From positions 1 through 64,000 of the IMG/VR virus record IMGVR_UViG_3300018031_000005: 64,000 bases of DNA, one strand, 5' to 3'. Shown here piece after piece: positions 7,160 to 31,018 of the stretch. The position numbers were made by a program, and so were the translations under genes. The stretch's first letter is position 1. Every line of letters begins with the position of its first letter. The stretch comes from a virus. Below the pieces are notes generated by a model that was not told where the DNA came from, did no database searches, and saw only the letters and a program-made list of their open reading frames with translations.

Positions 7160-7234
7160 ACGGCGGTGGTGTAACAGTAGCATCACGGTCTCCAAAGCCG
7201 TTGGGTGAGGGTGCAAATCCTTCCTGCCGTGCCA
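7160..7234 (+). tRNA. tRNA-Trp (CCA)
   Basis: Acceptor ACGGCGG/CTGCCGT; ACGGT-CTCCAAA-GCCGT; T arm GAGGG-TGCAAAT-CCTTC; encoded CCA. Confidence 0.85.
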
Positions 7235-7256
7235 ATTTTAGTAAAGGATTAAAAAC

Positions 7257-7439
7257 ATGATTATAACGACAGATTTTATAGGAATAAATAAAGTATATAG
7301 GCAAGTAAGTGAAGAGTTTAAAGCAAATAAAATACCAGTTATGCCTTTTAAAGATTTTTTGACTAAAATAAATATTCCAGTAATCGAAGTTAAGGAGATC
7401 AAAGAAGAAGATGAGAACGATAGAACAAAAGAGAGCTAG
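7257..7439 (+). CDS. hypothetical protein (60 aa)
   Basis: ORF track; overlaps the start of the next gene. Confidence 0.4.
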   Translation: MIITTDFIGINKVYRQVSEEFKANKIPVMPFKDFLTKINIPVIEVKEIKEEDENDRTKES

Positions 7440-7794
7440 TCAAAGAAAATCATATTATAAACATCATTATAGAAATAAGGCTAGAATAAATGCTAATAAC
7501 AAAATTCATAGAAATCAAAAAAAGAAAATGGCCAAAAGATTTCTTTTATTTAAAGGATGTTTGGTTTGTAAATATAAAAAATGTGATAGAGCGTTAGACT
7601 TTCATCATTTAGATCCCAAAATTAAGAATAGAGCTGTTAGTAGGATGATTTATGAAAATCATTCCATGAAGAGATTTAGGGAAGAAATAAGGAAATGTAT
7701 TGTATTGTGTGCTAATTGTCATAGAGAATTTCATGCAGGATTAATTAATTTAAAGGAATATATGAATCATTCGTCGTCAAGTTCGAGTATTTAG
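7411..7794 (+). CDS. HNH endonuclease
   Basis: CLVCKYKKC ... DFHHLDP ... VLCANCHREFH, an HNH/zinc-finger pattern. The G of the TAG stop is nt 1 of tRNA-Ser. Confidence 0.75.
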   Translation: MRTIEQKRASQRKSYYKHHYRNKARINANNKIHRNQKKKMAKRFLLFKGCLVCKYKKCDRALDFHHLDPKIKNRAVSRMIYENHSMKRFREEIRKCIVLCANCHREFHAGLINLKEYMNHSSSSSSI

Positions 7795-7880
7795 GAGAGT
7801 GGCGGGCAGTGGTGCTCAGCTAGTCTTGAAAACTAGGCCAGCCTACAAAGCTGAGGGTTCGACTCCTTCGCTCTCCGCCA
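7794..7880 (+). tRNA. tRNA-Ser (TGA), class II
   Basis: Acceptor GGAGAGT/GCTCTCC; CTAGT-CTTGAAA-ACTAG; long variable arm CAGC-CTACAAA-GCTG; T arm GAGGG-TTCGACT-CCTTC; encoded CCA. Confidence 0.85.
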
Positions 7881-7882
7881 AT

Positions 7883-7975
7883 GGAAGGGAGCCGGATATT
7901 GGCTAGCCGGATCTGTTTGCTAAACAGTTATGCTCCTTAAAAGCATTATGAGTTCGATTCTCATTCCTTCCGCCA
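7883..7975 (+). tRNA. tRNA-Ser (GCT), class II
   Basis: Acceptor GGAAGGG/TCCTTCC; anticodon loop TTGCTAA; long variable arm ATGCT-CCTTAAA-AGCAT; T arm ATGAG-TTCGATT-CTCAT; encoded CCA. Confidence 0.8.
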
Positions 7976-7998
7976 AACTTTTTAAAAGGACCCTATTT

Positions 7999-8358
7999 AT
8001 GAAAGAGCTATTATTTTCAGTAACAAAAAAGGATTTAGAGATAAGTTATTATAGTGGACATGGACCAGGAGGACAAAAACGAAATAAATGTAAAAACTGT
8101 GTTCGCATAAGCCATCCAGATTCGGGAGCCATGGTGACAGCGCAAGAAGAGAGAAGTAAAGAACAAAATCTTAAGAATGCATTTAATAGACTTGTAAAAC
8201 ATCCCAAATTTATTATATGGCACAAACGTAAAGTGTGGGAAATATTAAATAAGAAAACTATTGAACAACTGATTAACGAACAAATGGCTGATAAAAATAT
8301 AAAAATAGAAGTACTGCGAGACGATAAATGGGTTTTATGGAGCGAAGTAAATGAATAA
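7999..8358 (+). CDS. GGQ-motif peptidyl-tRNA hydrolase domain protein (RF-1 domain, ArfB-like)
   Basis: ORF 7930..8358 trimmed to ATG 7999, because the upstream part overlaps tRNA-Ser. SGHGPGGQKRNK ... VTAQEERSKEQNLKNAFNRL matches the class I release factor GGQ domain. Only about 119 aa, so no codon-recognition domains. Confidence 0.75.
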   Translation: MKELLFSVTKKDLEISYYSGHGPGGQKRNKCKNCVRISHPDSGAMVTAQEERSKEQNLKNAFNRLVKHPKFIIWHKRKVWEILNKKTIEQLINEQMADKNIKIEVLRDDKWVLWSEVNE

Positions 8359-8647
8359 TATTAAATGCATTTGTGGTTGGGAGCCTACTTATGTTGGATT
8401 GAATTATATAGAATGTCAAAATCCATATTGTGCAAATTTTAAATATGATTATTTTATACCTATGGATGAATATGAGAAAATGTTGGATGAATATTGTAGA
8501 AAGAATAATCTTGATTATTTATATCCTTTTTCTAAGAGGAAAAGAAGGGTTTTACTAGAGAAATTTTGTAACAAACATGCAAATTATTTCGTAGATAAGC
8601 GGTGGGACATTTTTCAAAAATTTTGTGAAGAAAATGATAATGACTAA
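8351..8647 (+). CDS. hypothetical Cys-containing protein (98 aa)
   Basis: ORF track. Confidence 0.5.
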   Translation: MNNIKCICGWEPTYVGLNYIECQNPYCANFKYDYFIPMDEYEKMLDEYCRKNNLDYLYPFSKRKRRVLLEKFCNKHANYFVDKRWDIFQKFCEENDND

Positions 8648-8840
8648 TAATGAAATTTTAGATAGAATAATAAAAAATGCATTTAGGTTAAGTCATCTTG
8701 CAATATATTATGAAAAGATGATGGATAATAAGCAACTTGATTTTGAGCAAGAACAAAAGTTAGAAGTTTATTTTAGGATTAAAAGGAATCAAGAGGAATT
8801 ATTAGGAAAACTTAAAAGAATAAATGGTGTCATGGTATAA
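8625..8840 (+). CDS. hypothetical protein (71 aa)
   Basis: ORF track. The last 15 nt, including TAA, lie inside tRNA-Asp. Confidence 0.45.
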   Translation: MKKMIMTNNEILDRIIKNAFRLSHLAIYYEKMMDNKQLDFEQEQKLEVYFRIKRNQEELLGKLKRINGVMV

Positions 8841-8900
8841 TGGCTATTATATCGCACTGTCGATGCGATGATTGGGGTTCAATTCCCCGTGGCACCGCCA
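8826..8900 (+). tRNA. tRNA-Asp (GTC)
   Basis: Acceptor GGTGTCA/TGGCACC; TCGCA-CTGTCGA-TGCGA; T arm TGGGG-TTCAATT-CCCCG; encoded CCA. Confidence 0.85.
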
Positions 8901-9014
8901 GTTAATAATTTATTTATCAACAGTTCGGTGCGCCAGTTGCAACGGAAGGCGTTAAATGGGGCGAATATCACCAGCCGACTTTTAAATAGGAGTATAAAAG
9001 ATAAAGTAAAATAT

Positions 9015-9092
9015 GGGGCATGAACCCAAAGTCAACGAGGGGTTTGCCTGTGAAGTAAATTTTAGTCAGTGTGAGTCTGACCTTGCCTCCCA
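9015..9092 (+). tRNA. tRNA-His (GTG) with encoded G-1
   Basis: Extra 5' G opposite discriminator C73. Acceptor GGGCATG/CTTGCCT (one mismatch); TTTGC-CTGTGAA-GTAAA; T arm GTCAG-TGTGAGT-CTGAC; encoded CCA. Confidence 0.75.
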
Positions 9093-9097
9093 AAATT

Positions 9098-9171
9098 GCC
9101 GGAATCGTATAACGATATTACCCGGAGCCTGTAACTCCGTGATGGCCGTTTAATTCGACCTTCCGGCTCCA
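9098..9171 (+). tRNA. tRNA-Thr (TGT)
   Basis: Acceptor GCCGGAA/TTCCGGC; CGGAG-CCTGTAA-CTCCG (C at position 33); T arm GGCCG-TTTAATT-CGACC (one mismatch); encoded CCA. Confidence 0.75.
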
Positions 9172-9173
9172 AT

Positions 9174-9251
9174 CGAGGAGAAGCATAAGTAGTTATATGC
9201 CCGTGTCTTATAAACACGAGACAAAAGGTGCAAGTCCTTTCTCCTCGACCA
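9174..9251 (+). tRNA. tRNA-Ile (TAT)
   Basis: Acceptor CGAGGAG/CTCCTCG; D arm GCAT-AAGTAGTTAT-ATGC; CGTGT-CTTATAA-ACACG; T arm AAAGG-TGCAAGT-CCTTT; encoded CCA. Confidence 0.85.
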
Positions 9252-9284
9252 TTTAAAAAATAAAGATTTAATAAGGAGTTTAAT

Positions 9285-9642
9285 ATGTATGAATGTACAA
9301 AAAATACACAAAAATTAAAAATAACTGAAGCAATTAAAGATATGAATATATATATCTCATTTTGAAGGTCCTATTAGTTCCATTATAAATCGTCTTAAAA
9401 AAATTGAAAAAAGTGCTCAAGCCTATGGATATCATAATATTTACTTACTAACAGGATATGATCATAATGGTGATTGTGTTGTAGAGGCTATTGGAGACAG
9501 ATTTGAAAGCGACGAAAAGTTAGAAAAAAGATTGTTTGCACTAAAGAAAGACAAAGAAGTAAAACAAAAAGAAAGAAATAAAAAAGATGTGCAAGAACGC
9601 AAAGAATACGAAAGACTAAGGGCTAAGTTTGAAGTAGTATAA
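9285..9642 (+). pseudogene. hypothetical gene split by a frameshift in an (AT)5 tract
   Basis: ATG 9285 with a strong AAGGAG SD reads 26 codons to TGA 9363. A long stop-free frame, +1 relative to it and lacking an ATG, continues from the AT tract (9346-9355) to TAA 9640. One extra AT unit would join the two. Confidence 0.4.
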
Positions 9643-9746
9643 TAATGTGGTGTACTTTACTGTAAACATTTATTTTATGGAATACCCATTGCTATATGCC
9701 TTATATTTGCTGTAATCTTAAATTATAAATTGAAGAAATAAGAAAA

Positions 9747-10196
9747 ATGATTGAAATTACGACTGATCAGAAAACATTAACATCGCCTTGTGAAGAATTA
9801 AAAAAAGATGATTATCATATTTTTAATGCATTAGAAGAATGCTTATTAAGATATCCAGATGGAGTAGGGTTAGCAGCACCGCAAATAGGAATACTTAAAC
9901 GTGCTTTTATTATTAAATCATATAAAGGATTTCTAAGATTTGCTAATCCACAAATTGTTAAAGGTGAAAATCTTATTAGTTCAATTGAAGGTTGTTTAAG
10001 TATACCAGAAAAAATTTTTAAAGTTGATAGATATGAAAATATTGTATTTAAAGATGAAATTAATGATATACATAACATTTATGGAACTTTATCAATTATC
10101 TTTCAACATGAATATGATCATATAAATGGCATAACTTTATTACAAAAAGGAAAATTAATATTGATTAATACCGATGTAAATTGCCGAGTCGTCTAA
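9747..10196 (+). CDS. def: peptide deformylase
   Basis: The three deformylase motifs are present: GVGLAAPQIG, EGCLSIP, QHEYDHINGI. The last 15 nt, including TAA, lie inside tRNA-Gln. Confidence 0.85.
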   Translation: MIEITTDQKTLTSPCEELKKDDYHIFNALEECLLRYPDGVGLAAPQIGILKRAFIIKSYKGFLRFANPQIVKGENLISSIEGCLSIPEKIFKVDRYENIVFKDEINDIHNIYGTLSIIFQHEYDHINGITLLQKGKLILINTDVNCRVV

Positions 10197-10258
10197 TTTG
10201 ATAGGACTTCTCGCTTTGAACGAGAAAGATGCTGGTTTGAATCCAGCCTCGGCATCCA
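10182..10258 (+). tRNA. tRNA-Gln (TTG)
   Basis: Acceptor TGCCGAG/CTCGGCA; D arm GTC-TAATTTGATAG-GAC; TCTCG-CTTTGAA-CGAGA; T arm GCTGG-TTTGAAT-CCAGC; encoded CCA. Confidence 0.85.
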
Positions 10259-10259
10259 T

Positions 10260-10335
10260 TGCGGGGTCATCTAATTTGGTAGGATGATAGCCTCTGAAGC
10301 TATTCATATTGGTTCGATTCCAGTTCCCGCAGCCA
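10260..10335 (+). tRNA. tRNA-Gln (CTG)
   Basis: Acceptor TGCGGGG/TCCCGCA; D arm ATC-TAATTTGGTAG-GAT; ATAGC-CTCTGAA-GCTAT; T arm ATTGG-TTCGATT-CCAGT; encoded CCA. Confidence 0.85.
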
Positions 10336-10393
10336 ATTTGAATAAACTTTATTTTATAAACGTTCTATTTTAGAAAGGTTCTTTGATAATTAA

Positions 10394-10733
10394 AAATCTT
10401 TGGTAGTCAAGCAACAGCTTTCGTCGCCCGCCCATGCGGGAGGAAAGTCCGGGCTCCATAGAGAGCATAGTGGCTAACGGCCATCCGTCGTGAGACGAGG
10501 ATTGCGAGCAGAGACGAGTCTTATTATATTTTGTCAACGTATCGTAAGATGTAAGAATATAATAAGGGTGAAACGGCTAAATATCTATGTGGAGCAAGTT
10601 CAAATAGGAACCAAGACATCTCTAGTCATTAAGGTTCGGGTAGAATGCTACAGGTTGTTAGTAATAATAATCGCAGAGAAATGACGAATTAAAACAAAAC
10701 CCGGCTTATTCGTTACTTGATTATCAGAGATTT
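10394..10733 (+). ncRNA. rnpB: RNase P RNA, bacterial type A
   Basis: Universal blocks are present: GAGGAAAGTCCGGGCTCCATAG, AAGGGTGAAACGG, GGAGCAAGTTCAAATAGG, GGTTCGGGTAGAATGC, ACAAAACCCGGCTTAT. An 18-bp terminal stem joins 10394-10411 to 10716-10733. Length is about 340 nt. Confidence 0.9.
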
Positions 10734-10747
10734 AAATTTAAAATTAT

Positions 10748-10822
10748 GGTTCGCAAGCATTAATAGTGATGCATTTCGCTCTTAACGAAAGGAACAGTTG
10801 GCAGTACACTGGCGGACCACCA
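10748..10822 (+). tRNA. tRNA-Lys (CTT)
   Basis: Acceptor GGTTCGC/GCGGACC; D arm GCAT-TAATAGTG-ATGC; TTTCG-CTCTTAA-CGAAA; irregular T arm CAGT..ACTG; encoded CCA. Confidence 0.7.
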
Positions 10823-10830
10823 GAAAATAT

Positions 10831-10906
10831 AGGCGTATGGCCAAAAGGTTAAGGCTCCTGCCTTACAAGCAGGAAATTGTAGGTTCGAGTCCTACTACGC
10901 CTACCA
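10831..10906 (+). tRNA. tRNA-Val (TAC)
   Basis: Acceptor AGGCGTA/TACGCCT; CCTGC-CTTACAA-GCAGG; T arm GTAGG-TTCGAGT-CCTAC; encoded CCA. Confidence 0.9.
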
Positions 10907-10915
10907 GAAATAAGT

Positions 10916-10993
10916 GTGGCTCTGGCAGAGTTAGTTAACGCATCCGGCTGAAGCCCGGACTATCTCGGTGCGATTCCGGGGGGGGCCACACCA
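10916..10993 (+). tRNA. tRNA-Phe (GAA), with 2 extra nt in a G8 run
   Basis: Acceptor GTGGCTC/GGGCCAC; TCCGG-CTGAAGC-CCGGA; T arm CTCGG-TGCGATT-CCGGG. Two surplus G lie between the T stem and the acceptor 3' strand. Encoded CCA. Confidence 0.7.
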
Positions 10994-10995
10994 AT

Positions 10996-11072
10996 GCTTC
11001 GGTAGTCCAACTGGCAGAGATAAGGGTCTTAAAAGCCCCAAAGTGTGGGTTCAAATCCCACCCGAAGCACCA
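10996..11072 (+). tRNA. tRNA with Leu anticodon TAA, short (class I-like) variable region
   Basis: Acceptor GCTTCGG/CCGAAGC; GGGT-CTTAAAA-GCCC; 5-nt variable region; T arm GTGGG-TTCAAAT-CCCAC; A73; encoded CCA. Confidence 0.7.
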
Positions 11073-11083
11073 TTGAAAATTAA

Positions 11084-11159
11084 GCCGTTGTAGCCCAAAA
11101 GCAGAGGCACATCTCTCAAAAAGATGTTAGTGTTGGTGCGAGTCCATCCAACGGCACCA
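11084..11159 (+). tRNA. tRNA with Leu anticodon CAA, short variable region
   Basis: Acceptor GCCGTTG/CAACGGC; CATCT-CTCAAAA-AGATG; 5-nt variable region; T arm GTTGG-TGCGAGT-CCATC; A73; encoded CCA. Confidence 0.75.
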
Positions 11160-11168
11160 GAAATTAGT

Positions 11169-11245
11169 GGCCAAGTATCCCAAATGGCAGAGGAGTTGGT
11201 CTTAGAAATCAATTGTTGTGAGTTCGAGTCTCACCTTGGCCACCA
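11169..11245 (+). tRNA. tRNA with Leu anticodon TAG, short variable region
   Basis: Acceptor GGCCAAG/CTTGGCC; TTGGT-CTTAGAA-ATCAA; 5-nt variable region; T arm GTGAG-TTCGAGT-CTCAC; A73; encoded CCA. Confidence 0.75.
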
Positions 11246-11252
11246 TTTTTAT

Positions 11253-11328
11253 GGCTCGTTAGCCAAGTGGAAAGGCGGAAATCTGCAAAATTTCTATTAC
11301 ATAGGTTCGATTCCTATACGGGCCTCCA
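11253..11328 (+). tRNA. tRNA-Cys (GCA)
   Basis: Acceptor GGCTCGT/ACGGGCC; GAAAT-CTGCAAA-ATTTC; T arm ATAGG-TTCGATT-CCTAT; discriminator U73; encoded CCA. Confidence 0.85.
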
Positions 11329-11340
11329 TTGAAATTAAAG

Positions 11341-11427
11341 GGGTCAGTGTGCCGAGCAGCGAAGGCAAGAGTCTGTAAAACTCCCACAACTGAAACAACG
11401 TAGGTGCGAGTCCTACCTGACCCACCA
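11341..11427 (+). tRNA. tRNA-Tyr (GTA), class II
   Basis: Acceptor GGGTCAG/CTGACCC; D arm TGCC-GAGCAGCGAA-GGCA; anticodon loop CTGTAAA; long variable arm; T arm GTAGG-TGCGAGT-CCTAC; encoded CCA. Confidence 0.85.
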
Positions 11428-11430
11428 CGT

Positions 11431-11506
11431 GCGTTCTTGGTGTTAATAGCTAGCATATAGCCTTGCCAAGGCTACGGTGCGGGTGCAAGTCCCGCAGAAC
11501 GCTCCA
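11431..11506 (+). tRNA. tRNA-Gly (GCC)
   Basis: Acceptor GCGTTCT/AGAACGC; TAGCC-TTGCCAA-GGCTA; T arm GCGGG-TGCAAGT-CCCGC; U73; encoded CCA. Confidence 0.85.
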
Positions 11507-11525
11507 TTTTAAAAGATTAATTTAT

Positions 11526-11774
11526 ATGAAAGTAGTACATTGTAAAAAAGAACGATATGATGTTTATATTGGTAGACCATCTAAATGGAGAAATCCGTTT
11601 GTGATTGGTAAAGATGGAAATAGAGAAGAAGTCATAGAAAAATATAAAAAGTGGTTATTGAATAATAAAGAACTTATGGCAGATTTATGGGAATTAAGAG
11701 GTAAAATACTAGCATGTTGGTGTGCTCCTCAATCTTGCCATGGCGATGTATTATTAGAGTTAGCAAATAAATGA
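11526..11774 (+). CDS. DUF4326-like protein
   Basis: ORF 11463..11774 trimmed to ATG 11526, because the upstream part overlaps tRNA-Gly. YIGRPSKWRNPF ... LACWCAPQSCHGDVL pattern. The TGA stop overlaps the first 2 nt of the next tRNA. Confidence 0.55.
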   Translation: MKVVHCKKERYDVYIGRPSKWRNPFVIGKDGNREEVIEKYKKWLLNNKELMADLWELRGKILACWCAPQSCHGDVLLELANK

Positions 11775-11848
11775 GCTATTAGTGTTTAACAGCAGCACGT
11801 CGTCCTTCCAAGTCGAAAGTGAGGATGCAACTTCCTCATAGCTCTCCA
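11773..11848 (+). tRNA. tRNA-Gly (TCC)
   Basis: Acceptor GAGCTAT/ATAGCTC; TCGTC-CTTCCAA-GTCGA (one mismatch); T arm GAGGA-TGCAACT-TCCTC; U73; encoded CCA. Confidence 0.8.
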
Positions 11849-20109: not shown

Positions 20110-20127
20110 TTGATTTTGGAGTTAAAT

Positions 20128-23100
20128 ATGCCTTTTCAATTTCCAGATGTAGCGTCAGAATTTATTTATATGAGAACCTATTCTCGATGGATAGATGAAT
20201 TAGGTCGCAGAGAAACTTGGGAAGAAACTGTTGATCGTTATATTGATTTTATTCAGAAACATTGTGGTAATGTAGTACCTCAAAAAGTATTTCGCAAGGC
20301 TCGTGAAGCAATTTTAAATATGAGGGCAATGCCTTCTATGAGAGCCTTATGGACTGCTGGTCCTGCTGCTGAATTTGATAATACTTGTTTATATAATTGT
20401 TTTAGCAAGGATACATTGTTCATTTCAAGTAAAGGAGTTGTTTCTTTTGCGAATTTTAGTGATGGCGAAGAAATTCAAGTTATTACTCACAATGGTAGAT
20501 GGAAAAATGCCACTGTTCGTTCTTTTGGAAGACAAGTCCTAAATCGGGTTTATTTTGCCAAGGGTGGTCGTGGAAAAGATCATGTTGTGAATGTTACCGC
20601 CAATCATAAATGGATACTAAAGTCTGGAGAAAATACAACAAATCTAAAAGAAGGTGATCTAGTTCTAATGGCACCTAAAAAAGATGATTTTATTTATGAA
20701 AATGCTACGCCCGATGAAAGATTATATTGGTGTTATGGTTATGTTTATGGAGATGGCACAAAGGTTAAAGGCAAAAGTGACCAATACGAATACTCGATGG
20801 TTAGATTATGTAAAAAGGATGTACCTTATAGTGTACGGTTTGAAGAGGTTGGTTTTAAAACATCTACTAATCATTCATTAAATGGTGATTTTTTTGCCTA
20901 CACTGGAACTTATTTAAAGACTTTACCAGAAATAGAAAAAGAACCAATAGAGAGAATAATGGCATTTCTTAATGGTTATTTGTGTGCCGATGGAGCAAAA
21001 GAAGAAAATAATGGAAGAAAGTATTTCAAAGCAATACAGGCAACGGGAAATGAGAGTATAAATTTTCTGAGAAAGACGCTTCCAATGTGTGGTTATTACA
21101 TTGTTAGAGAAGATGATTTTACTGGTCAAATAACTAACTTTGGACAAAGAACAGATAAAACTATTAGCTTTTCTATAAGTGATAATATATGTAGAGAAAG
21201 TAATGCCGCTTGGCGAGTTTCAAGAATAGAACAAAATATATCAGAAGAAGAGGTTTGGTGTCTTGAAGTTGAAGGTGATCATTCTTTTTGTTTACCATTT
21301 GGCGTAGTCACAGGAAACTGTTCATTTCAGAACATAGATTCAGTGGAGGCATTCGCAGAATGTCTTTATATTTTAATGTGCGGTGCCGGCTATGGATTTA
21401 GTGTAGAAAAAAAATATGTTGATAAACTACCAGAAGTTCCAAAACTAACAAGCGAATCTTCTGGAACCTATATAATTGAAGATAATAAAATGGGATGGGC
21501 TGAGTCTGTACGTCGTTTAATGACTGCTCTGTATAATGGGAAAGACCTTGATCTTGATTATTCAAAATTGAGACCAAAAGGTGCTCGTCTAAAAACTATG
21601 GGAGGTAGATCGTCCGGTCCCGAGCCATTAATGCGACTTCATACATTTATTAGAGAAGTTTTCCAAAAAGCACAAGGAAGAAAATTAAAGTCCATTGAAT
21701 GTCACGATATTTGTAATCAAATAGCAGAAATAGTGGTTGTTGGTGGCGTTCGTCGTTCTAGCGAAATCAGCATATCGGATCTTGATGACTTAGAAATGGC
21801 AAATGCTAAAACTGGTACTTTTCCTGTGCGCCGTTACATGTCAAATAATAGCGCTGTTTACTATGAGAAACCTACTGCTGCTCGTTTCTTGCGTGAATGG
21901 TCAATTCTTGTAAATAGTGGTACAGGTGAGCGTGGTATTTTCAATCTAGCTGGTGCTCGCAAAAATGCTCCAGAAAGACGAAATGGGAAAATGATAGATG
22001 GAACAAATCCATGCGGTGAAATTAATCTTCGTTCTCGTCAATTTTGTGTTGCAGGAAATACCCAGGTAATAACTAAAAATGGCATCATTACTATTAAAGA
22101 TGCAGTGGGCGAGGAGCATGAAGTATGGAATGGCAAGAAATGGTCAAAAGTAATACCAAGATTGACTAGAAAAAATGCTAGTCTTGTTAGAGTTGAACTT
22201 AGTGATGGTTCATATCTTGAATGTACGCCGGATCATAGATTTTCTGTAAAAAATAGATTTAGTGATACATTTTTAGAAGTACAAGCAAAAGACTTGATGC
22301 TTCATAGTAAATATAAATTACAATCTGAACCATATAAAATACAATATGAAAATGGAAGTGATTTTCAAAATGCATATACGTTAGGATTTGCAGTTGGTGA
22401 TGGTTGCGTGTATAAAAATAAAGTATTCATTGATCTTTATGGTGAAAAAGACTTTTTATGTCCAGTTGAAGGAAATAGATATAAAAAATATTTACCTGCT
22501 GGATATTCAAAAGAAAGACAACGTGTTAACTGTACTAATATTTTAGATGGCAATATGGTATCGGCACTAAAAACATCTAACGATGCTTTTATACCAATCT
22601 TTTCATGGTCAAAAAAGAGCATTTTAGAGTTTTTAGCTGGAATGATAGATGCTGATGGATCGGAAACATCAACCGGTGGTATTAGATTATATCTATCAGA
22701 TAGAGAAAGGTCTGAAAAAATACAACTTTTACTAACAAAATGTGGAATACGTTCTTCTATTTGTTTATTACAAAAAGCAGGGGAAATAACTAATATTGGA
22801 GAAAGAAGAAGAGATTTATTTTATTTGCAAATAACGGACTGTTCTGAGATTCCTTGCAAAAGAGTTAATACTTATAGAGGGCACATATCTATTATAAAGT
22901 CAAAATATCAAAATATAAAATCTGTTACAGAAATAGATGGTGTGAATGATGTTTATTGTTTTGAAGAAAAAGAAAGGCATATGGCAGTATTCAACAATAT
23001 ACTAACTTATCAATGTAATCTATCCGAAATAGTCTTACGTGATGGCGACGATCTTGATGATATAATGGATAAAGTTGAAACTACTGTTTGGCTTGGTGCT

Positions 23101-23970
23101 ATTCAATCAACATTTACTTATTTTCCATATTTAAACAAAAAATGGAAAACAAATTGTGAAGAAGAATGTCTTCTTGGAGTATCAATTACAGGACAAATGG
23201 ATAATCCCGGTTTACTAACAGAAACGGCGCTTGAAGCATTAAAAAAGAAAGCAATTAAAATTGCGAAACACGCCTCTTCTATTTTAGGTATTAATCTTTC
23301 TGTGGCAATTACTTGCGTAAAACCTAGTGGTACTGTTTCTCAACTTGTGAATTCATCTTCTGGTCTACATCCTCGCTATTCTAAATATTATATTCGCAGA
23401 TATCGTATTTCTTCAACCGATCCTCTTTATAAAATGATGAATGATCAGGGATTTAAATTTAATCCGGACAATGGTCAAAGACAAAAGGATTGGCGTGCTG
23501 CTGCTAAGGGTAATACTTCTGCTTGTAGTATTTATGAACAGGGTAAAGAATGGTCAGAAGATAAGGTAACTACTTGGGTTGTTGAATTTCCTGTTAAATC
23601 TCCAGAAAAATCAACAATTCGCAATGAAATGACGGCTATTGATCAATTAGAACATTATAGAAAAATACAAACAAAGTGGTGTGAACATAATGCAAGTTGT
23701 ACTGTCTATGTAAAAGACGAAGAATGGATTGAAGTTGGTAATTGGGTTTATAAAAATTGGGACATAATAAATGGCATATCTTTTTTACCTCATGATGGAG
23801 GCAATTATGAGCAAGCTCCATATGAGGAGATAAATAAAGAAACATATGATAAAATGATTAAGGATATCCCCAAGATTGATTATAATAAATTATCCAATTA
23901 TGAGAAAGAAGATAGTACGACCGGCGCTAAATCACTAGCTTGTGTTGGTGATAAATGCGAAATTTCTTGA
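20128..23970 (+). CDS. nrdJ: class II (B12-dependent) ribonucleotide reductase interrupted by two inteins
   Basis: ORF 20110..23970 trimmed to ATG 20128 (GGAG upstream). Extein motifs MPSMRALWTAG, LYN|CSF, TNPCGEI, F|CNLSE, and a C-terminal CVGDKC tail. Confidence 0.85.
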   Translation: MPFQFPDVASEFIYMRTYSRWIDELGRRETWEETVDRYIDFIQKHCGNVVPQKVFRKAREAILNMRAMPSMRALWTAGPAAEFDNTCLYNCFSKDTLFISSKGVVSFANFSDGEEIQVITHNGRWKNATVRSFGRQVLNRVYFAKGGRGKDHVVNVTANHKWILKSGENTTNLKEGDLVLMAPKKDDFIYENATPDERLYWCYGYVYGDGTKVKGKSDQYEYSMVRLCKKDVPYSVRFEEVGFKTSTNHSLNGDFFAYTGTYLKTLPEIEKEPIERIMAFLNGYLCADGAKEENNGRKYFKAIQATGNESINFLRKTLPMCGYYIVREDDFTGQITNFGQRTDKTISFSISDNICRESNAAWRVSRIEQNISEEEVWCLEVEGDHSFCLPFGVVTGNCSFQNIDSVEAFAECLYILMCGAGYGFSVEKKYVDKLPEVPKLTSESSGTYIIEDNKMGWAESVRRLMTALYNGKDLDLDYSKLRPKGARLKTMGGRSSGPEPLMRLHTFIREVFQKAQGRKLKSIECHDICNQIAEIVVVGGVRRSSEISISDLDDLEMANAKTGTFPVRRYMSNNSAVYYEKPTAARFLREWSILVNSGTGERGIFNLAGARKNAPERRNGKMIDGTNPCGEINLRSRQFCVAGNTQVITKNGIITIKDAVGEEHEVWNGKKWSKVIPRLTRKNASLVRVELSDGSYLECTPDHRFSVKNRFSDTFLEVQAKDLMLHSKYKLQSEPYKIQYENGSDFQNAYTLGFAVGDGCVYKNKVFIDLYGEKDFLCPVEGNRYKKYLPAGYSKERQRVNCTNILDGNMVSALKTSNDAFIPIFSWSKKSILEFLAGMIDADGSETSTGGIRLYLSDRERSEKIQLLLTKCGIRSSICLLQKAGEITNIGERRRDLFYLQITDCSEIPCKRVNTYRGHISIIKSKYQNIKSVTEIDGVNDVYCFEEKERHMAVFNNILTYQCNLSEIVLRDGDDLDDIMDKVETTVWLGAIQSTFTYFPYLNKKWKTNCEEECLLGVSITGQMDNPGLLTETALEALKKKAIKIAKHASSILGINLSVAITCVKPSGTVSQLVNSSSGLHPRYSKYYIRRYRISSTDPLYKMMNDQGFKFNPDNGQRQKDWRAAAKGNTSACSIYEQGKEWSEDKVTTWVVEFPVKSPEKSTIRNEMTAIDQLEHYRKIQTKWCEHNASCTVYVKDEEWIEVGNWVYKNWDIINGISFLPHDGGNYEQAPYEEINKETYDKMIKDIPKIDYNKLSNYEKEDSTTGAKSLACVGDKCEIS
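20398..21318 (+). mobile_element. intein 1 in RNR (307 aa, with LAGLIDADG-like endonuclease)
   Basis: Starts CFSKDTLF after LYN. Contains LNGYLCADGAK. Ends VWCLEVEGDHSFCLPFGVVTGN, followed by CSF. Confidence 0.8.
22045..23013 (+). mobile_element. intein 2 in RNR (323 aa, with LAGLIDADG endonuclease)
   Basis: Starts CVAGNTQVITKNG after RSRQF. Contains LGFAVGDGC and FLAGMIDADGSE. Ends VYCFEEKERHMAVFNNILTYQ, followed by CNL. Confidence 0.8.
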
Positions 23971-27937: not shown

Positions 27938-30900
27938 ATGAAAACTCATGTAATTAATCCAGCATATAATCATTATAGAAATTTGCCAGCAGAAGAAGAT
28001 TTAATTAATCCATTAGTAGATATTGGTAGAAATTTTAAAGAAATTAATGAATTGGTTGAATTTTATAAACTTGGTAATGAATATTATTCACCAGAATTTG
28101 GCATTAAATACTTGCTTGGAACCAATATTTATCCTTATCAGATGGCTACAATTAGAGCGATATTGGGTCATAAATTTCCAATGCTTCTTTTTACTCGTGG
28201 TGGAGGAAAATGCATAGTAGGAGATTCTCTTGTTTTTACAGATAATGGAATACTTAAAATGGAAGAGTGTTTTGGAGAATATAATGGACAAAATGGACAC
28301 ATCAAACCTTTAGAGATAAACATACATAATGGTGAAAAACTTTGTAAAACATCACTTGGAATATGTAATAAAAAATCTAAAACGATAAAAATAAAAACTT
28401 GTAGAGGAATAGAAATAGAAGGAACGCCAGAACATAAAATAAGAGTTGCTGGCCAAAATAGTGATATTATTTGGAAAAGATTAGATGAAATACACAATAG
28501 GGATAATATAGTTTTATCAAGAAACAATAATATATTTGGGAAAGAAAATAGTATTACAGAAGAAGAGGCTCATTATTTAGGGCTTTTGACTGGCGATGGA
28601 TGCCTAAGTCGTGATAATCTTGTTATTTTTTCATCAAAAGACGAAGAGCTTATTACGGTTTTTAGATATATTACTAAAAAACTTTTTGATAAAGATATTT
28701 CTGGTCCATTTGGGTCTGGTATTTGTGACTATAAGTTTTATGGAAAATCAGAAAGAAAGATTTTATTAGAAAAATATGGAATGAAACTGTGTAAATCTTA
28801 CGATAAGGATATTCCATTATGTATTAGAAAATCTCAAAAACATATAATTTCATCCTTCATTAAAGGACTATTTGATACAGATGGTACAGTTGGATGTAAA
28901 AGTGTAGACTTTTGTACCACTTCTATAACACTTATAAAGCAATTACAAATATTACTTTTAAACTTTGGGATTATATGTAGGATTAGAGAGAAAAAAACTA
29001 AAAGTTTATTTGGTAAAGTATATATTCTTATTATTTCTAGTAATAATATTGATATTTTTGCAAAAGAAATAGGATTTTGTTGTGAACGTAAAAAAATAAA
29101 AATGAATTTATTATTAGACAAAAAAAGAAATACAAATATTGATATTATCCCAAATAGTTCATCTTTATTTATAAGTATTTTAAATGAGATAAAAAATAAA
29201 AAAATACTTTATGATAATAGTATTTCTGTATGGAGATGTTTAAGATATGGCATTACTTATTATTATGCTAATAAAATTCTTGCTATTTGTAACGAAATAG
29301 GCAATAATAGTGAAAATGTTAGTAAACTGAAAAACATTATTCGTAATAATTATTTTTATTCTAATATCACAAATATTTCAGAATCAGAGGCTATAACTTA
29401 TGATTTTACTATTCCAGAAGGACATTCTTTTGTATCAAATGGGATTATTTCTCATAATACATTTATTTTAGCTGTTTATGCCATTTATCATTCTGTAATG
29501 TTTCCTGGTTCTAAAGTCGTTTTAGTTTCAGCATCTTTTAGACAATCTAAATTAATATTTTCTGAGATTGATAAAATATATCATAGTTCACCGCTTTTGA
29601 GAGCTATTTCTGAAGATAAACCTAGGATTAGTACAGACCATTGTCATTATGAAGTTTGTGGATCAAGTATTAAAGCCTTGCCTCTTGGTACTGGTAGTAA
29701 AATTAGAGGCGAGCGTGGTCATGTAATTTTGGCGGATGAATTTAATTCTATTCCTATTGAAGTATTTGATGTAGTAGTTCGTGGTTTTGGTGCTACGCAA
29801 GCTGATCCGTGGATGAAAACTAGAGAGACTATGATAAAACAATTTGAGAATAATATACAAGAAGGAATTAATAAAGATAAAGAAATGGCCGAGTTTATGT
29901 TGGCTGATGGTAATAGAATTGTGCTTTCTGGTACTGCTGGATTTAAAAATGGCACTTTTTACAGAATGTTTAGTCAATATCAGAGAATATTAGCTCATAG
30001 AGTGAAGGGAAAAGCTATTGATTACAAAGATATTTTTAAAGAAGAAATAGATGATGATCATGAAATAAATTATGAAGATTATTGTGTATTGATTTTTAAT
30101 TATTTAGATTTACCACCAGGAATGATGGATATTAAAATAATTGATCATGCTAGAGCAACAATGCCTTCATTTCTTTTTGACATGGAATATATGTGTAAAT
30201 TTGCAGATGATTCATATGGATTCTTTAAAATGAAAGACATTGAAAGTGCTACTGCTCCACGTGGTGGTTTTACCTTTTCTATGCAAGGTTCAGAAAATAG
30301 AAGATATATTGTAGGAGTTGATCCGGCTAGAACCGTTGATCGTTTTGCAATAGTTGTTATTGAGATAGGATCTCCTAATAAATTGGTTTATGTATGGACT
30401 TGTCAAAACAAACCATTTTCTTATTCTGCTGCTAAATTGAGAGAAATTTTACGTAATTTTAAAGTTTCGGGTATTGCAATGGATGAAGGTGGTGGTGGTT
30501 TAGCAATAGAAGAATTGATTAATAAATCAGATGTAATGAAAGAGGGCGAAAAGAAAATTTACAGATTCGACGATGAATCGGAAGATGCTAAACTTGGACA
30601 AAAAATATTGTGGATGTTTAATTTTAGTTCTAACTGGATAGATGAAGCTAATACATTATTACAAAAGAACTTAGAAGATCGTGTCACTATGTTTCCATAT
30701 CCCTTAATTCAAGGAGAATTTTCTGAAGAAAAAGATGATGTATTATTTGAGATTAATCAATTAAAGCAAGAGCTTATAGCCATTGAGGTTACGCATACTA
30801 AAAGTGGCAAAAAGCATTATGATTTAGCTCCACCAAATCTTAGAAAAGATAGTAGTGGCGTAATTAAACATAAAGATAGGTATTCTGCTTTAATTTTAGC

Positions 30901-31018
30901 TAATTATTTAGTAAGCCGATTTGGCAAATTAACTACAGATGAAAAGGCTAAACAAGTAAGTGCTTATGAAAAAACTGTTCAATACGTTGGATGGATGGAA
31001 AATATTCCAAGTTCCTAA
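27938..31018 (+). CDS. terL: terminase large subunit interrupted by an intein in the Walker A loop
   Basis: The exteins join as FTRGGGK|TFILAVYA (P-loop). VILADEFNS (Walker B-like). C-terminal nuclease region GVDPAR ... AMDEGGGG. Confidence 0.85.
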   Translation: MKTHVINPAYNHYRNLPAEEDLINPLVDIGRNFKEINELVEFYKLGNEYYSPEFGIKYLLGTNIYPYQMATIRAILGHKFPMLLFTRGGGKCIVGDSLVFTDNGILKMEECFGEYNGQNGHIKPLEINIHNGEKLCKTSLGICNKKSKTIKIKTCRGIEIEGTPEHKIRVAGQNSDIIWKRLDEIHNRDNIVLSRNNNIFGKENSITEEEAHYLGLLTGDGCLSRDNLVIFSSKDEELITVFRYITKKLFDKDISGPFGSGICDYKFYGKSERKILLEKYGMKLCKSYDKDIPLCIRKSQKHIISSFIKGLFDTDGTVGCKSVDFCTTSITLIKQLQILLLNFGIICRIREKKTKSLFGKVYILIISSNNIDIFAKEIGFCCERKKIKMNLLLDKKRNTNIDIIPNSSSLFISILNEIKNKKILYDNSISVWRCLRYGITYYYANKILAICNEIGNNSENVSKLKNIIRNNYFYSNITNISESEAITYDFTIPEGHSFVSNGIISHNTFILAVYAIYHSVMFPGSKVVLVSASFRQSKLIFSEIDKIYHSSPLLRAISEDKPRISTDHCHYEVCGSSIKALPLGTGSKIRGERGHVILADEFNSIPIEVFDVVVRGFGATQADPWMKTRETMIKQFENNIQEGINKDKEMAEFMLADGNRIVLSGTAGFKNGTFYRMFSQYQRILAHRVKGKAIDYKDIFKEEIDDDHEINYEDYCVLIFNYLDLPPGMMDIKIIDHARATMPSFLFDMEYMCKFADDSYGFFKMKDIESATAPRGGFTFSMQGSENRRYIVGVDPARTVDRFAIVVIEIGSPNKLVYVWTCQNKPFSYSAAKLREILRNFKVSGIAMDEGGGGLAIEELINKSDVMKEGEKKIYRFDDESEDAKLGQKILWMFNFSSNWIDEANTLLQKNLEDRVTMFPYPLIQGEFSEEKDDVLFEINQLKQELIAIEVTHTKSGKKHYDLAPPNLRKDSSGVIKHKDRYSALILANYLVSRFGKLTTDEKAKQVSAYEKTVQYVGWMENIPSS
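28211..29458 (+). mobile_element. intein in terminase large subunit (416 aa, with LAGLIDADG endonuclease)
   Basis: Starts CIVGDSLVFTDNG. Contains YLGLLTGDGC and FIKGLFDTDGTV. Ends GHSFVSNGIISHN, followed by T. Confidence 0.85.

Follow-up and report, generated by a model that had tools for sequence, protein, structure and literature searches.

The window analyzed here is the whole stretch of 64,000 nucleotides (nt) at positions 1 to 64,000 of the IMG/VR virus record IMGVR_UViG_3300018031_000005, and the subject of this work is the RNA gene at 10407-10724. The locus is a bacterial class-A ribonuclease P (RNase P) RNA gene, borne by a phage and situated inside the phage's tRNA array, whose elements around the gene are as follows.

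5793..11843, plus strand: the whole tRNA array, about 26 tRNA or tRNA-like genes on a single strand (ARAGORN, Rfam)
10182..10335, plus strand: two tRNA-Gln genes (UUG, CUG), both of which encode CCA (ARAGORN)
10407..10724, plus strand: RNase P RNA, bacterial class A (RF00010), 318 nt, 43% GC (Rfam match)
10747..10822, plus strand: tRNA-like cloverleaf ending in ACCA, with the anticodon loop CUCUUAA and an aberrant T arm (fold z = -2.75, none of 200 shuffles as good)
10831..11506, plus strand: a run of tRNA genes, namely Val, an Rfam-only tRNA, three Leu, Cys, Tyr and Gly (ARAGORN, Rfam)

In an Rfam cmscan, RF00010 (RNaseP_bact_a) matched 10407-10724 (+) across model positions 1-367, untruncated, with 165.7 bits against a gathering score of 100 (E = 1.2e-51), and a chance match is excluded. 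Class A prevailed over class B (RF00011) in the Rfam clan competition, and P16, P17 and P6 are present in the RNA. An initial annotation, made from the letters alone, had proposed a complete type-A RNase P RNA; the assignment to type A was borne out by this full-length match, whereas completeness holds only in the sense that the match spans the model from end to end, since P13/P14 are absent (43 model positions reduced to 2 nt in the Rfam alignment). The weak points that it had named for itself were a failing or truncated model match and the loss of P4 on folding; the match is untruncated and P4 forms 8 of its 8 pairs. The five conserved blocks that it had placed in the correct order were all located in the sequence, in the order claimed (each read from the sequence).

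10440-10461, plus strand: conserved block GAGGAAAGTCCGGGCTCCATAG
10564-10576, plus strand: conserved block AAGGGTGAAACGG
10591-10608, plus strand: conserved block GGAGCAAGTTCAAATAGG
10633-10648, plus strand: conserved block GGTTCGGGTAGAATGC
10694-10709, plus strand: conserved block ACAAAACCCGGCTTAT

When the Rfam structure was projected onto the window, 70 of the 79 modelled pairs with letters on both sides were canonical and nine were mismatched, with eight more falling in deletions. Among the strongly conserved (upper-case) positions of the RF00010 consensus, 100 of 122 were kept, and of the 22 that were lost, 12 are concentrated in 10501-10524 and 10578-10586, which correspond to P10/P11 and the base of P12, the remainder being scattered. 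Both P4 strands are identical to the consensus, and J18/2 and CR-V agree with it. By all sequence and structure criteria testable here, the RNA qualifies as a member of RF00010.

The gene belongs to the phage rather than being an artefact. Genes for a large terminase, a portal protein and a 1,920-aa tape-measure protein (PF10145) are present in the window, and phage genes lie on both flanks of the RNase P locus. The window is identical to contig k141_817590 (168,569 bp) of ENA ERZ27267896, and a second sample (ERZ27267951) yielded a contig of 168,558 bp with a different start point, which matches it at 99.98% identity over 20 kb and shows no difference throughout the RNase P locus.

The embedding of the gene in the tRNA array, also proposed initially, was confirmed: on the same strand, the tRNA-Gln pair ends 58 nt upstream, across an AT-rich spacer (10336-10393), and the tRNA-like element at 10747-10822, which was called neither by ARAGORN nor, at its gathering score, by Rfam and is followed by tRNA-Val, starts 13 nt after the P1 extension (the outermost part of the stem that closes the RNA, see below). 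ARAGORN called 22 tRNAs in the window, three more were found by Rfam only (9174-9248, 10918-10988 and 11774-11843), and a weak Rfam match lies at 6657-6725; with at least one uncalled cloverleaf, the total comes to about 26-27, fewer than the roughly 30 tRNA genes first estimated. A second uncalled CCA-ending element was noticed at about 9098-9171 (+), which has 'tccggctCCA' as its end, shortly ahead of the tRNA at 9174. Both uncalled elements may be unusual or degenerate tRNAs.

Architecture of the RNA and its cellular relatives

The RNA can be divided into the following elements, all on the plus strand, among which the P4 and P6 pseudoknots are not representable in the Rfam model and were paired separately.

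10394..10406: 5' arm of a 13-bp P1 extension outside the family model, pairing with 10721-10733 (sequence, minimum-free-energy (MFE) fold)
10721..10733: 3' arm of the P1 extension (sequence, MFE fold)
10407-10417 / 10709-10720: P1 (Rfam structure projection)
10419-10425 / 10683-10689: P2 (Rfam structure projection)
10427-10440: P3, a short 5-bp hairpin, CCCGC / GCGGG (Rfam match, projection, MFE fold)
10445-10453: P4 5' strand AAG[U]CCGGG (CR-I, part of the catalytic core), in which U10448 is bulged and the other letters form 8 of 8 pairs with CCCGGCUU at 10700-10707
10454-10457 / 10591-10594: P5 (Rfam structure projection)
10460-10464 / 10619-10623: P6 pseudoknot, AGAGA / UCUCU, 5 bp (read by hand)
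10465-10469 / 10586-10590: P7 (Rfam structure projection)
10470-10484: P8 hairpin (Rfam match, projection, MFE fold)
10485-10499: P9 hairpin with a GUGA (GNRA) loop at 10490-10493 (Rfam match, projection, MFE fold)
10500..10585: specificity-domain arm with P10/P11, J11/12, P12 and J12/13 (Rfam match, partly realigned by hand)
10500-10502 / 10583-10585 and 10507-10509 / 10576-10578: P10/P11, two 3-bp stems (hand realignment)
10520-10531 / 10555-10567: P12, AU-rich, with a 23-nt loop (Rfam structure projection)
10595..10646: J5/15 (GCAA), then the P15-P16-P17 arm (Rfam match, projection, MFE fold)
10598-10601 / 10643-10646: P15, 4 bp (Rfam structure projection)
10608-10612 / 10633-10637: P16, 5 bp (Rfam structure projection)
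10615-10617 / 10625-10627: P17, 3 bp, whose loop carries the P6 3' strand (sequence; hairpin in the MFE fold)
10638-10641: L15 internal loop GGGU, a putative 3'-CCA-binding motif (sequence, Rfam match)
10653-10672: P18, 8 bp, with a GUAA (GNRA) loop at 10661-10664 (Rfam match, projection, MFE fold)
10673..10720: J18/2 (CAGAGAAAUG), P2 3' strand, CR-V with the P4 3' strand (ACAAAACCCGGCUUAU) and P1 3' strand (Rfam match, projection)

Loops of the GNRA type on P9 and P18 serve tertiary docking, and the GGU motif in L15 of class-A RNAs pairs with the 3'-CCA of the substrate tRNA. Within the arm at 10500-10585, J12/13 reads GGGUGAAACG. The fold of the RNase P locus of minimum free energy has z = -3.99, and none of 100 shuffles folds as well. 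The closing stem had first been described as an 18-bp P1-type stem, and all 18 consecutive pairs between 10394-10411 and 10716-10733 (15 Watson-Crick and three G-U) were indeed found by hand and recur in the unconstrained MFE fold, but only the inner five fall in the modelled P1. The outer 13 pairs, which make up the P1 extension, were not seen in the related phage RNAs L001, L016 and L029 (introduced below), where tRNAs abut the RNA; they may provide end protection or a processing signal. P12, P15, P16 and P18 are AU-rich. The suggestion that AU-rich peripheral helices reflect long residence in the phage genome is plausible, but an AT-rich donor would look alike, as a comparison with the AT-rich relative L232 (see below) illustrates.

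The distribution of the P13/P14-less arrangement in bacteria was examined in one genome per species with the pattern GGTGAAA, 10-24 nt, GGAGCAA-NNNN-AAATAGG, which gave at least 120 loci. Among the matches listed, the arrangement occurs mostly in Burkholderiales and Nitrosomonadales and in some Omnitrophota, Planctomycetes and Chloroflexi; the list is dominated by Betaproteobacteria and cannot name a donor. In a study of RNase P RNAs from the candidate phyla radiation (CPR), loss of P13, P14 and P18 was also described as 'not uncommon' (PMC8172020). The idea that the loss of P13/P14 is a novelty of the phage was rejected, as this is the standard betaproteobacterial arrangement in the genome scan. 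Because many bacteria are likewise without P13/P14, the RNA is assigned, on its sequence, to a known natural subtype of class A. The closest of the bacterial matches listed, from Methylophilaceae and Nitrosomonadales, share 66-70% identity over aligned columns, a level that represents essentially the conserved core and from which a donor is not identifiable.

In architecture, the betaproteobacterial-type RNAs appear to be the closest cellular relatives. The phage RNA resembles them in having P1-P12 and P15-P18, the P4 and P6 pseudoknots, the L15 GGU and the GNRA loops on P9 and P18, as well as in the order of elements from J12/13 to P5 (GGUGAAACG, about 16-17 nt, GGAGCAA). Unlike cellular class-A RNAs, it is encoded by a phage, within a tRNA array and with no rnpA found in the same genome region; its GC content is 43%, with the AU-rich helices mentioned above, and it has a P1 longer by 13 bp, a short P3 and an irregular P10/P11. 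The further argument that a type-A architecture speaks against a type-B host is weak, since RnpA proteins are functionally interchangeable between species (PMC4919922) and, among isolates, the portal protein has relatives only in Bacillus phages (21-24% identity).

Related RNase P RNAs on other viral contigs

IMG/VR was scanned for the P4 block and for the P13/P14-less block, and Rfam was run on the resulting loci. About 20 IMG/VR contigs (20-497 kb) have a full-length class-A RNase P RNA, and on about 16 viral contigs (20-463 kb) the RNA lies inside a dense same-strand tRNA array, with 6-26 tRNAs per locus. The Rfam scores of these RNAs were as follows.

L001: 463 kb contig, 208 bits
L029: 100 kb contig, 209 bits
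L016: 170 kb contig, 181 bits
L054: 369 kb contig, 267 bits
L058: 363 kb contig, 300 bits
L075: 114 kb contig, 277 bits
L079: 190 kb contig, 261 bits
L024: 162 kb contig, 280 bits
L055: 191 kb contig, 118.5 bits
L239: 265 kb contig, 170 bits
L240: 89 kb contig, 165 bits
L241: 98 kb contig, 229 bits
L242: 42 kb contig, 141 bits

Three more loci (L044, L062 and L068) also qualify by pattern matching and ARAGORN. A same-strand tRNA was present within 150 nt at 17 of 26 RNase P-like loci detected by regular expression, and on four large contigs (L007, L078, L037 and L039) the RNA lies outside any dense tRNA array. PHROG matches support the viral origin of the L058, L079, L007 and L037 loci. Some short contigs with an ordinary high-scoring RNA resemble host DNA, such as L002 (6 kb, 328 bits, no tRNA array). 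In genomic context, the IMG/VR phage RNAs are the closest relatives of the RNA in the window. P13/P14 are likewise absent from L001, L016, L029, L013 and L239-L242; unlike the window RNA, the IMG/VR phage RNAs have 48-71% GC and are divergent outside the core, and several have abutting tRNAs and no P1 extension. RNase P RNA is therefore apparently a recurrent rather than a singleton gene in large uncultivated phages, and a seemingly unreported one.

Selection on the structure was assessed in an alignment of the five P13/P14-less phage RNAs from the window, L001, L029, L016 and L013, with 68 consensus pairs. In this alignment 96.1% of cells are paired, and compensatory double changes occur in 39 pairs; because the structure was derived from the same five sequences, the percentage paired is inflated, though not the count of compensatory pairs. 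The observed covariation was reached in none of 500 column shuffles, and sliding the 3' partners by 1-3 columns left only 1-7 such pairs. Compensatory changes are found in P8, P9, P15 and P16 as well, and in 7 of the 8 pairs of P18. P6 covaries between the RNAs, being AGAGA/UCUCU in the window, GAACA/UGUUC in L001, GAGCA/UGCUC in L029 and AAGCA/UGCUU in L016. P4 is invariant in these five RNAs and compensated in two others (G>C with C>G in L241, GG>AA with CC>UU in L232). In L239, L240 and L242, the P4 5' strand reads GAGGAAGUUCRGGR versus GAGGAAAGUCCGGG, and the 3' strand carries matching changes (UCCYGGCUAU), so that 8 of 8 pairs form in a shifted register. Taken as sequence comparisons, these data provide evidence that the phage RNase P RNAs are under selection on structure.

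Several of the loci found carry a further reduced RNA or are otherwise unusual. The RNA at L055:10596-10802 (IMGVR_UViG_3300028920_000026) is a 207-nt class-A RNA in a tRNA array, which keeps P4 and is without P12-P14 and P15-P17 (85 and 52 model positions, respectively); it may be considered a candidate for a naturally minimal bacterial-type RNase P RNA. At L039:6583-6880 (-), on a 202-kb viral contig, P13/P14 are kept, P15-P17 are absent and no tRNA array surrounds the RNA; 3 kb away, at L039:3325-3528 (-), a group I intron was noticed (RF00028, 68 bits). The closest AT-rich relative found is L232:1330-1627 (JGI contig Ga0265293_10137441, 1.8 kb, 36% GC), an RNA of 298 nt and 41% GC without P13/P14, which shares the P15 of the window RNA (GUUC/GAAY) and has a very similar P18, and which is flanked by small open reading frames (ORFs) of no known function. 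The contig L042 (IMGVR_UViG_3300034069_002177, 203 kb) matched the P4 block and gave no RNase P match at the gathering score; behind a transfer-messenger RNA (tmRNA; RF00023), which is truncated by the end of the locus, it has more than 25 tRNAs.

Among isolate phages in GenBank, no RNase P RNA gene was found. At relaxed E-values, only unannotated fecal 'Bacteriophage sp.', prophage-like Acinetobacter and misfiled Salmonella records share RNase P blocks, and these were set aside. No description of a phage-encoded RNase P RNA was found in the literature searched by full text, to which subscription journals mostly do not belong, and phage RNase P RNAs are provisionally regarded as undescribed so far. 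The rarity that had been supposed for such a gene holds for isolated phages and for the papers searched, but not for uncultivated large phages, given the roughly 20 IMG/VR contigs above. A survey of huge phages, in which RNase P has 0 occurrences, annotated RNAs with tRNAscan-SE and ARAGORN only (PMC7162821). Since RNAs are annotated with these two programs alone, RNase P RNA genes are missed in such surveys, which should be taken as a practical warning.

Function, partner protein and rival readings

The locus is probably a working gene of the rnpB type, which encodes a P13/P14-less class-A catalytic RNA subunit and is owned by the phage of about 168.5 kb. The gene would be transcribed within a long plus-strand precursor of the tRNA array. 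In a consensus-only scan, the 58-nt spacer ahead of the gene showed no sigma-70-like promoter site, nor did any plus-strand terminator-like site appear between the gene and its neighbours, and the possibility that the gene forms its own transcription unit was rejected on this basis; the missing sites and the shared strand are consistent with co-transcription with the array. The RNA might then be freed by the processing that releases the tRNAs, its 3' end arising from an RNase P cut at the 5' end of the element at 10747, and it is predicted to adopt the usual fold with a catalytic and a specificity domain. As rnpA was not detected in the parts of the phage genome covered, the RNA would be expected to assemble with the RnpA of the host. 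The resulting hybrid enzyme would cut the 5' leaders from the phage's pre-tRNAs (roughly 26), whose encoded 3'-CCA matches the L15 GGU. The 3'-CCA is encoded directly after the discriminator base in 22 of 25 phage tRNAs and two bases further on in two (10918-10988 and 11774-11843), which fits an enzyme that keeps a CCA-binding L15. The benefit for the phage may be that RNase P capacity is raised or preserved as phage tRNA precursors flood the cell and host RNA synthesis declines.

The absence of an RnpA-like protein from the window, as initially reported, was upheld by different screens. No PF00825 (Ribonuclease_P) domain was detected by Pfam among the 44 plus-strand ORFs of 75-260 aa in the window, and none occurs in the precomputed Pfam matches of called genes from 1-28 kb of the record and 10 kb beyond the window end. 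A phmmer search with sequences of E. coli and B. subtilis RnpA, which is a weak screen, found nothing in the window and nothing in the viral loci collected here; the Pfam scan is the better negative of the two. RnpA binds P2, P3, J18/2 and CR-V (PMC4919922), all of which look standard in the window RNA.

Several points weigh against a working gene of this kind. A search for rnpA elsewhere in the genome, which had been suggested as a check, found none in the parts covered, about 82 of 168.5 kb in all, and a phage protein partner is possible beyond them. P10/P11 are mismatched in the Rfam alignment and fit the model poorly, and J11/12 (CAGAGACGAG) falls 2 nt short of its length in the closest phage homologues; because of both irregularities, recognition of the substrate T loop could be weakened. 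Given an AU-rich P12 and a short P3, folding may be heavily protein-dependent. In addition, the phage appears from sequence searches to be a lineage without close sequenced relatives: the window has no nucleotide match among GenBank phages, PhoH relatives in IMG/VR reach at most 55% identity, with an RNase P-like element or tRNA array at none of 16 loci, and in a set of 5.8 billion proteins the peptide deformylase has relatives of at most 46% identity outside the phage itself, on contigs without an RNase P locus.

The screened parts amount to about half of the genome, and a diverged rnpA could lie in the other 86 kb or so, or an unrecognised cofactor other than RnpA could be encoded, in which case the phage would possess an autonomous RNase P. 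Many small basic ORFs of no known function occur in the array (e.g., 5246-5581 and 7411-7794), and translation-related genes for Ro60, an RF-1-domain protein and peptide deformylase cluster here. This explanation is nevertheless improbable, because PF00825 is missing from the examined parts, the weak phmmer screen of the collected viral loci was negative as well, and the RnpA-binding regions look standard, so that host RnpA should suffice.

It is even less probable that the RNA acts as a decoy, which captures host RnpA or pre-tRNAs without catalysis and thereby starves tRNA maturation in the host. If it binds protein, an RNA without a phage rnpA must compete for that of the host; its specificity domain is the least conserved part, and the RNase P-like RNA of camelpox virus, the only viral precedent in the papers searched, has been discussed as a possible decoy (PMC3001073). 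Such a role, however, needs no intact catalytic core, P6, CCA-binding L15 or GNRA loops, all of which are kept and covary across phage lineages, and it would be self-defeating, as the phage's own tRNAs, about 26 in number, require RNase P.

A host rnpB gained by illegitimate recombination beside the tRNA array, now decaying as a passenger without a phage function, is very improbable. Phages do acquire host genes, the wide variation of phage RNase P RNAs in GC and architecture suggests several independent captures, and P10/P11 are irregular. A decaying copy is hard to reconcile with a 43% GC RNA whose AU-rich peripheral helices are still base-paired and whose catalytic core is intact; moreover, the RNA is kept and covaries in many unrelated large phages, and its placement in or beside same-strand tRNA arrays argues for selection rather than accident. 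Misassembly of host DNA into a phage contig, or a contig that is not viral, is scarcely credible, for although a number of short IMG/VR contigs resemble host DNA and bear an ordinary RNase P RNA of high score (L002), the contigs of two samples agree here at the locus, with terminase, portal and tape-measure genes on the same contig and phage genes on both sides.

RNase P RNA is one of two universal ribozymes, and to our knowledge it has until now been regarded as a cellular and organellar gene. The polycistronic tRNA precursor of phage T4 needs RNase P for its 5' ends, and T4 relies wholly on the host enzyme, unlike the phage studied here, which brings the ribozyme subunit itself. What is new in the present case is the kind of carrier, and neither the RNA family nor the kind of molecule. 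It resembles the translation genes of huge phages, such as tRNA arrays, tmRNA/SmpB and release factors, in that parts of the host's translation and RNA-maturation machinery are duplicated (PMC7162821). The nearest conceptual parallel, by analogy, would be organellar rnpB, as in the jakobid mitochondrion and the plastid and mitochondrion of Ostreococcus tauri, where a small dependent genome likewise keeps the RNA while the protein is encoded elsewhere, and where the RNAs are often AU-rich and reduced (PMC4919922; PMC3590771). Unlike organellar rnpB, which descends vertically from the endosymbiont, the gene here has a viral carrier, and an unrelated host would supply the protein. The sole virus-borne precedent found in the papers searched, the RNase P-like RNA of camelpox virus and other orthopoxviruses, shows a partial structural resemblance and did not process pre-tRNA in vitro (PMC3001073), whereas the phage RNA scores as a full member of the family and has all core elements.

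If the gene works as proposed, 5' maturation of tRNAs joins the host functions that large phages duplicate, and the pairing of a phage RNA with a host protein would offer a natural test of how freely RNase P RNA and protein can be mixed across lineages. The viral RNAs also form a set of naturally reduced class-A RNAs, the shortest of 207 nt, from which the minimal functional core might be defined. A bolder proposal, which we regard as doubtful, is that 'ribozyme replacement' is widespread in large phages, whose own RNA might take over host RnpA and re-tune RNase P to phage pre-tRNAs that encode CCA and away from host substrates; the phage RNAs could then represent a reservoir of minimised ribozymes (P13/P14-less, P15-P17-less and 207-nt forms), all working in vivo.

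Neighbouring genes and minor observations

The genes and features upstream of the array and between its tRNAs were as follows.

801-927, plus strand: weak Y-RNA-like match (YrlA, RF02553), 28.3 bits, E 0.011, below the gathering score (Rfam)
1223-2890, plus strand: Ro60/TROVE and vWA protein (phrog_850; PF05731/PF25045) (PHROG/Pfam)
7930-8358, plus strand: RF-1-domain (GGQ) protein (Pfam)
9747-10196, plus strand: peptide deformylase (Pfam)
11463-11774, plus strand: DUF4326 protein (Pfam)

The first two look like a phage Ro60/Y-RNA module located just upstream of the tRNA array. A phrog_850 (Ro60-like) protein is also encoded beside the array of L079, at 6363-7163, on a contig that has the RNase P RNA together with 26 tRNAs. 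The genes for the RF-1-domain protein, peptide deformylase and DUF4326 protein are interleaved with the tRNAs and make up a translation and RNA-maturation island, and Pfam also identified a PhoH gene nearby.

Two genes of the window appear to have been invaded by mobile elements. The ribonucleotide reductase at 20110-23970 (+), of 1,286 aa, has intein/LAGLIDADG Pfam matches, and the N-terminal region of the large terminase at 27938-31018 (+), of 1,026 aa, matches an endonuclease PHROG family.

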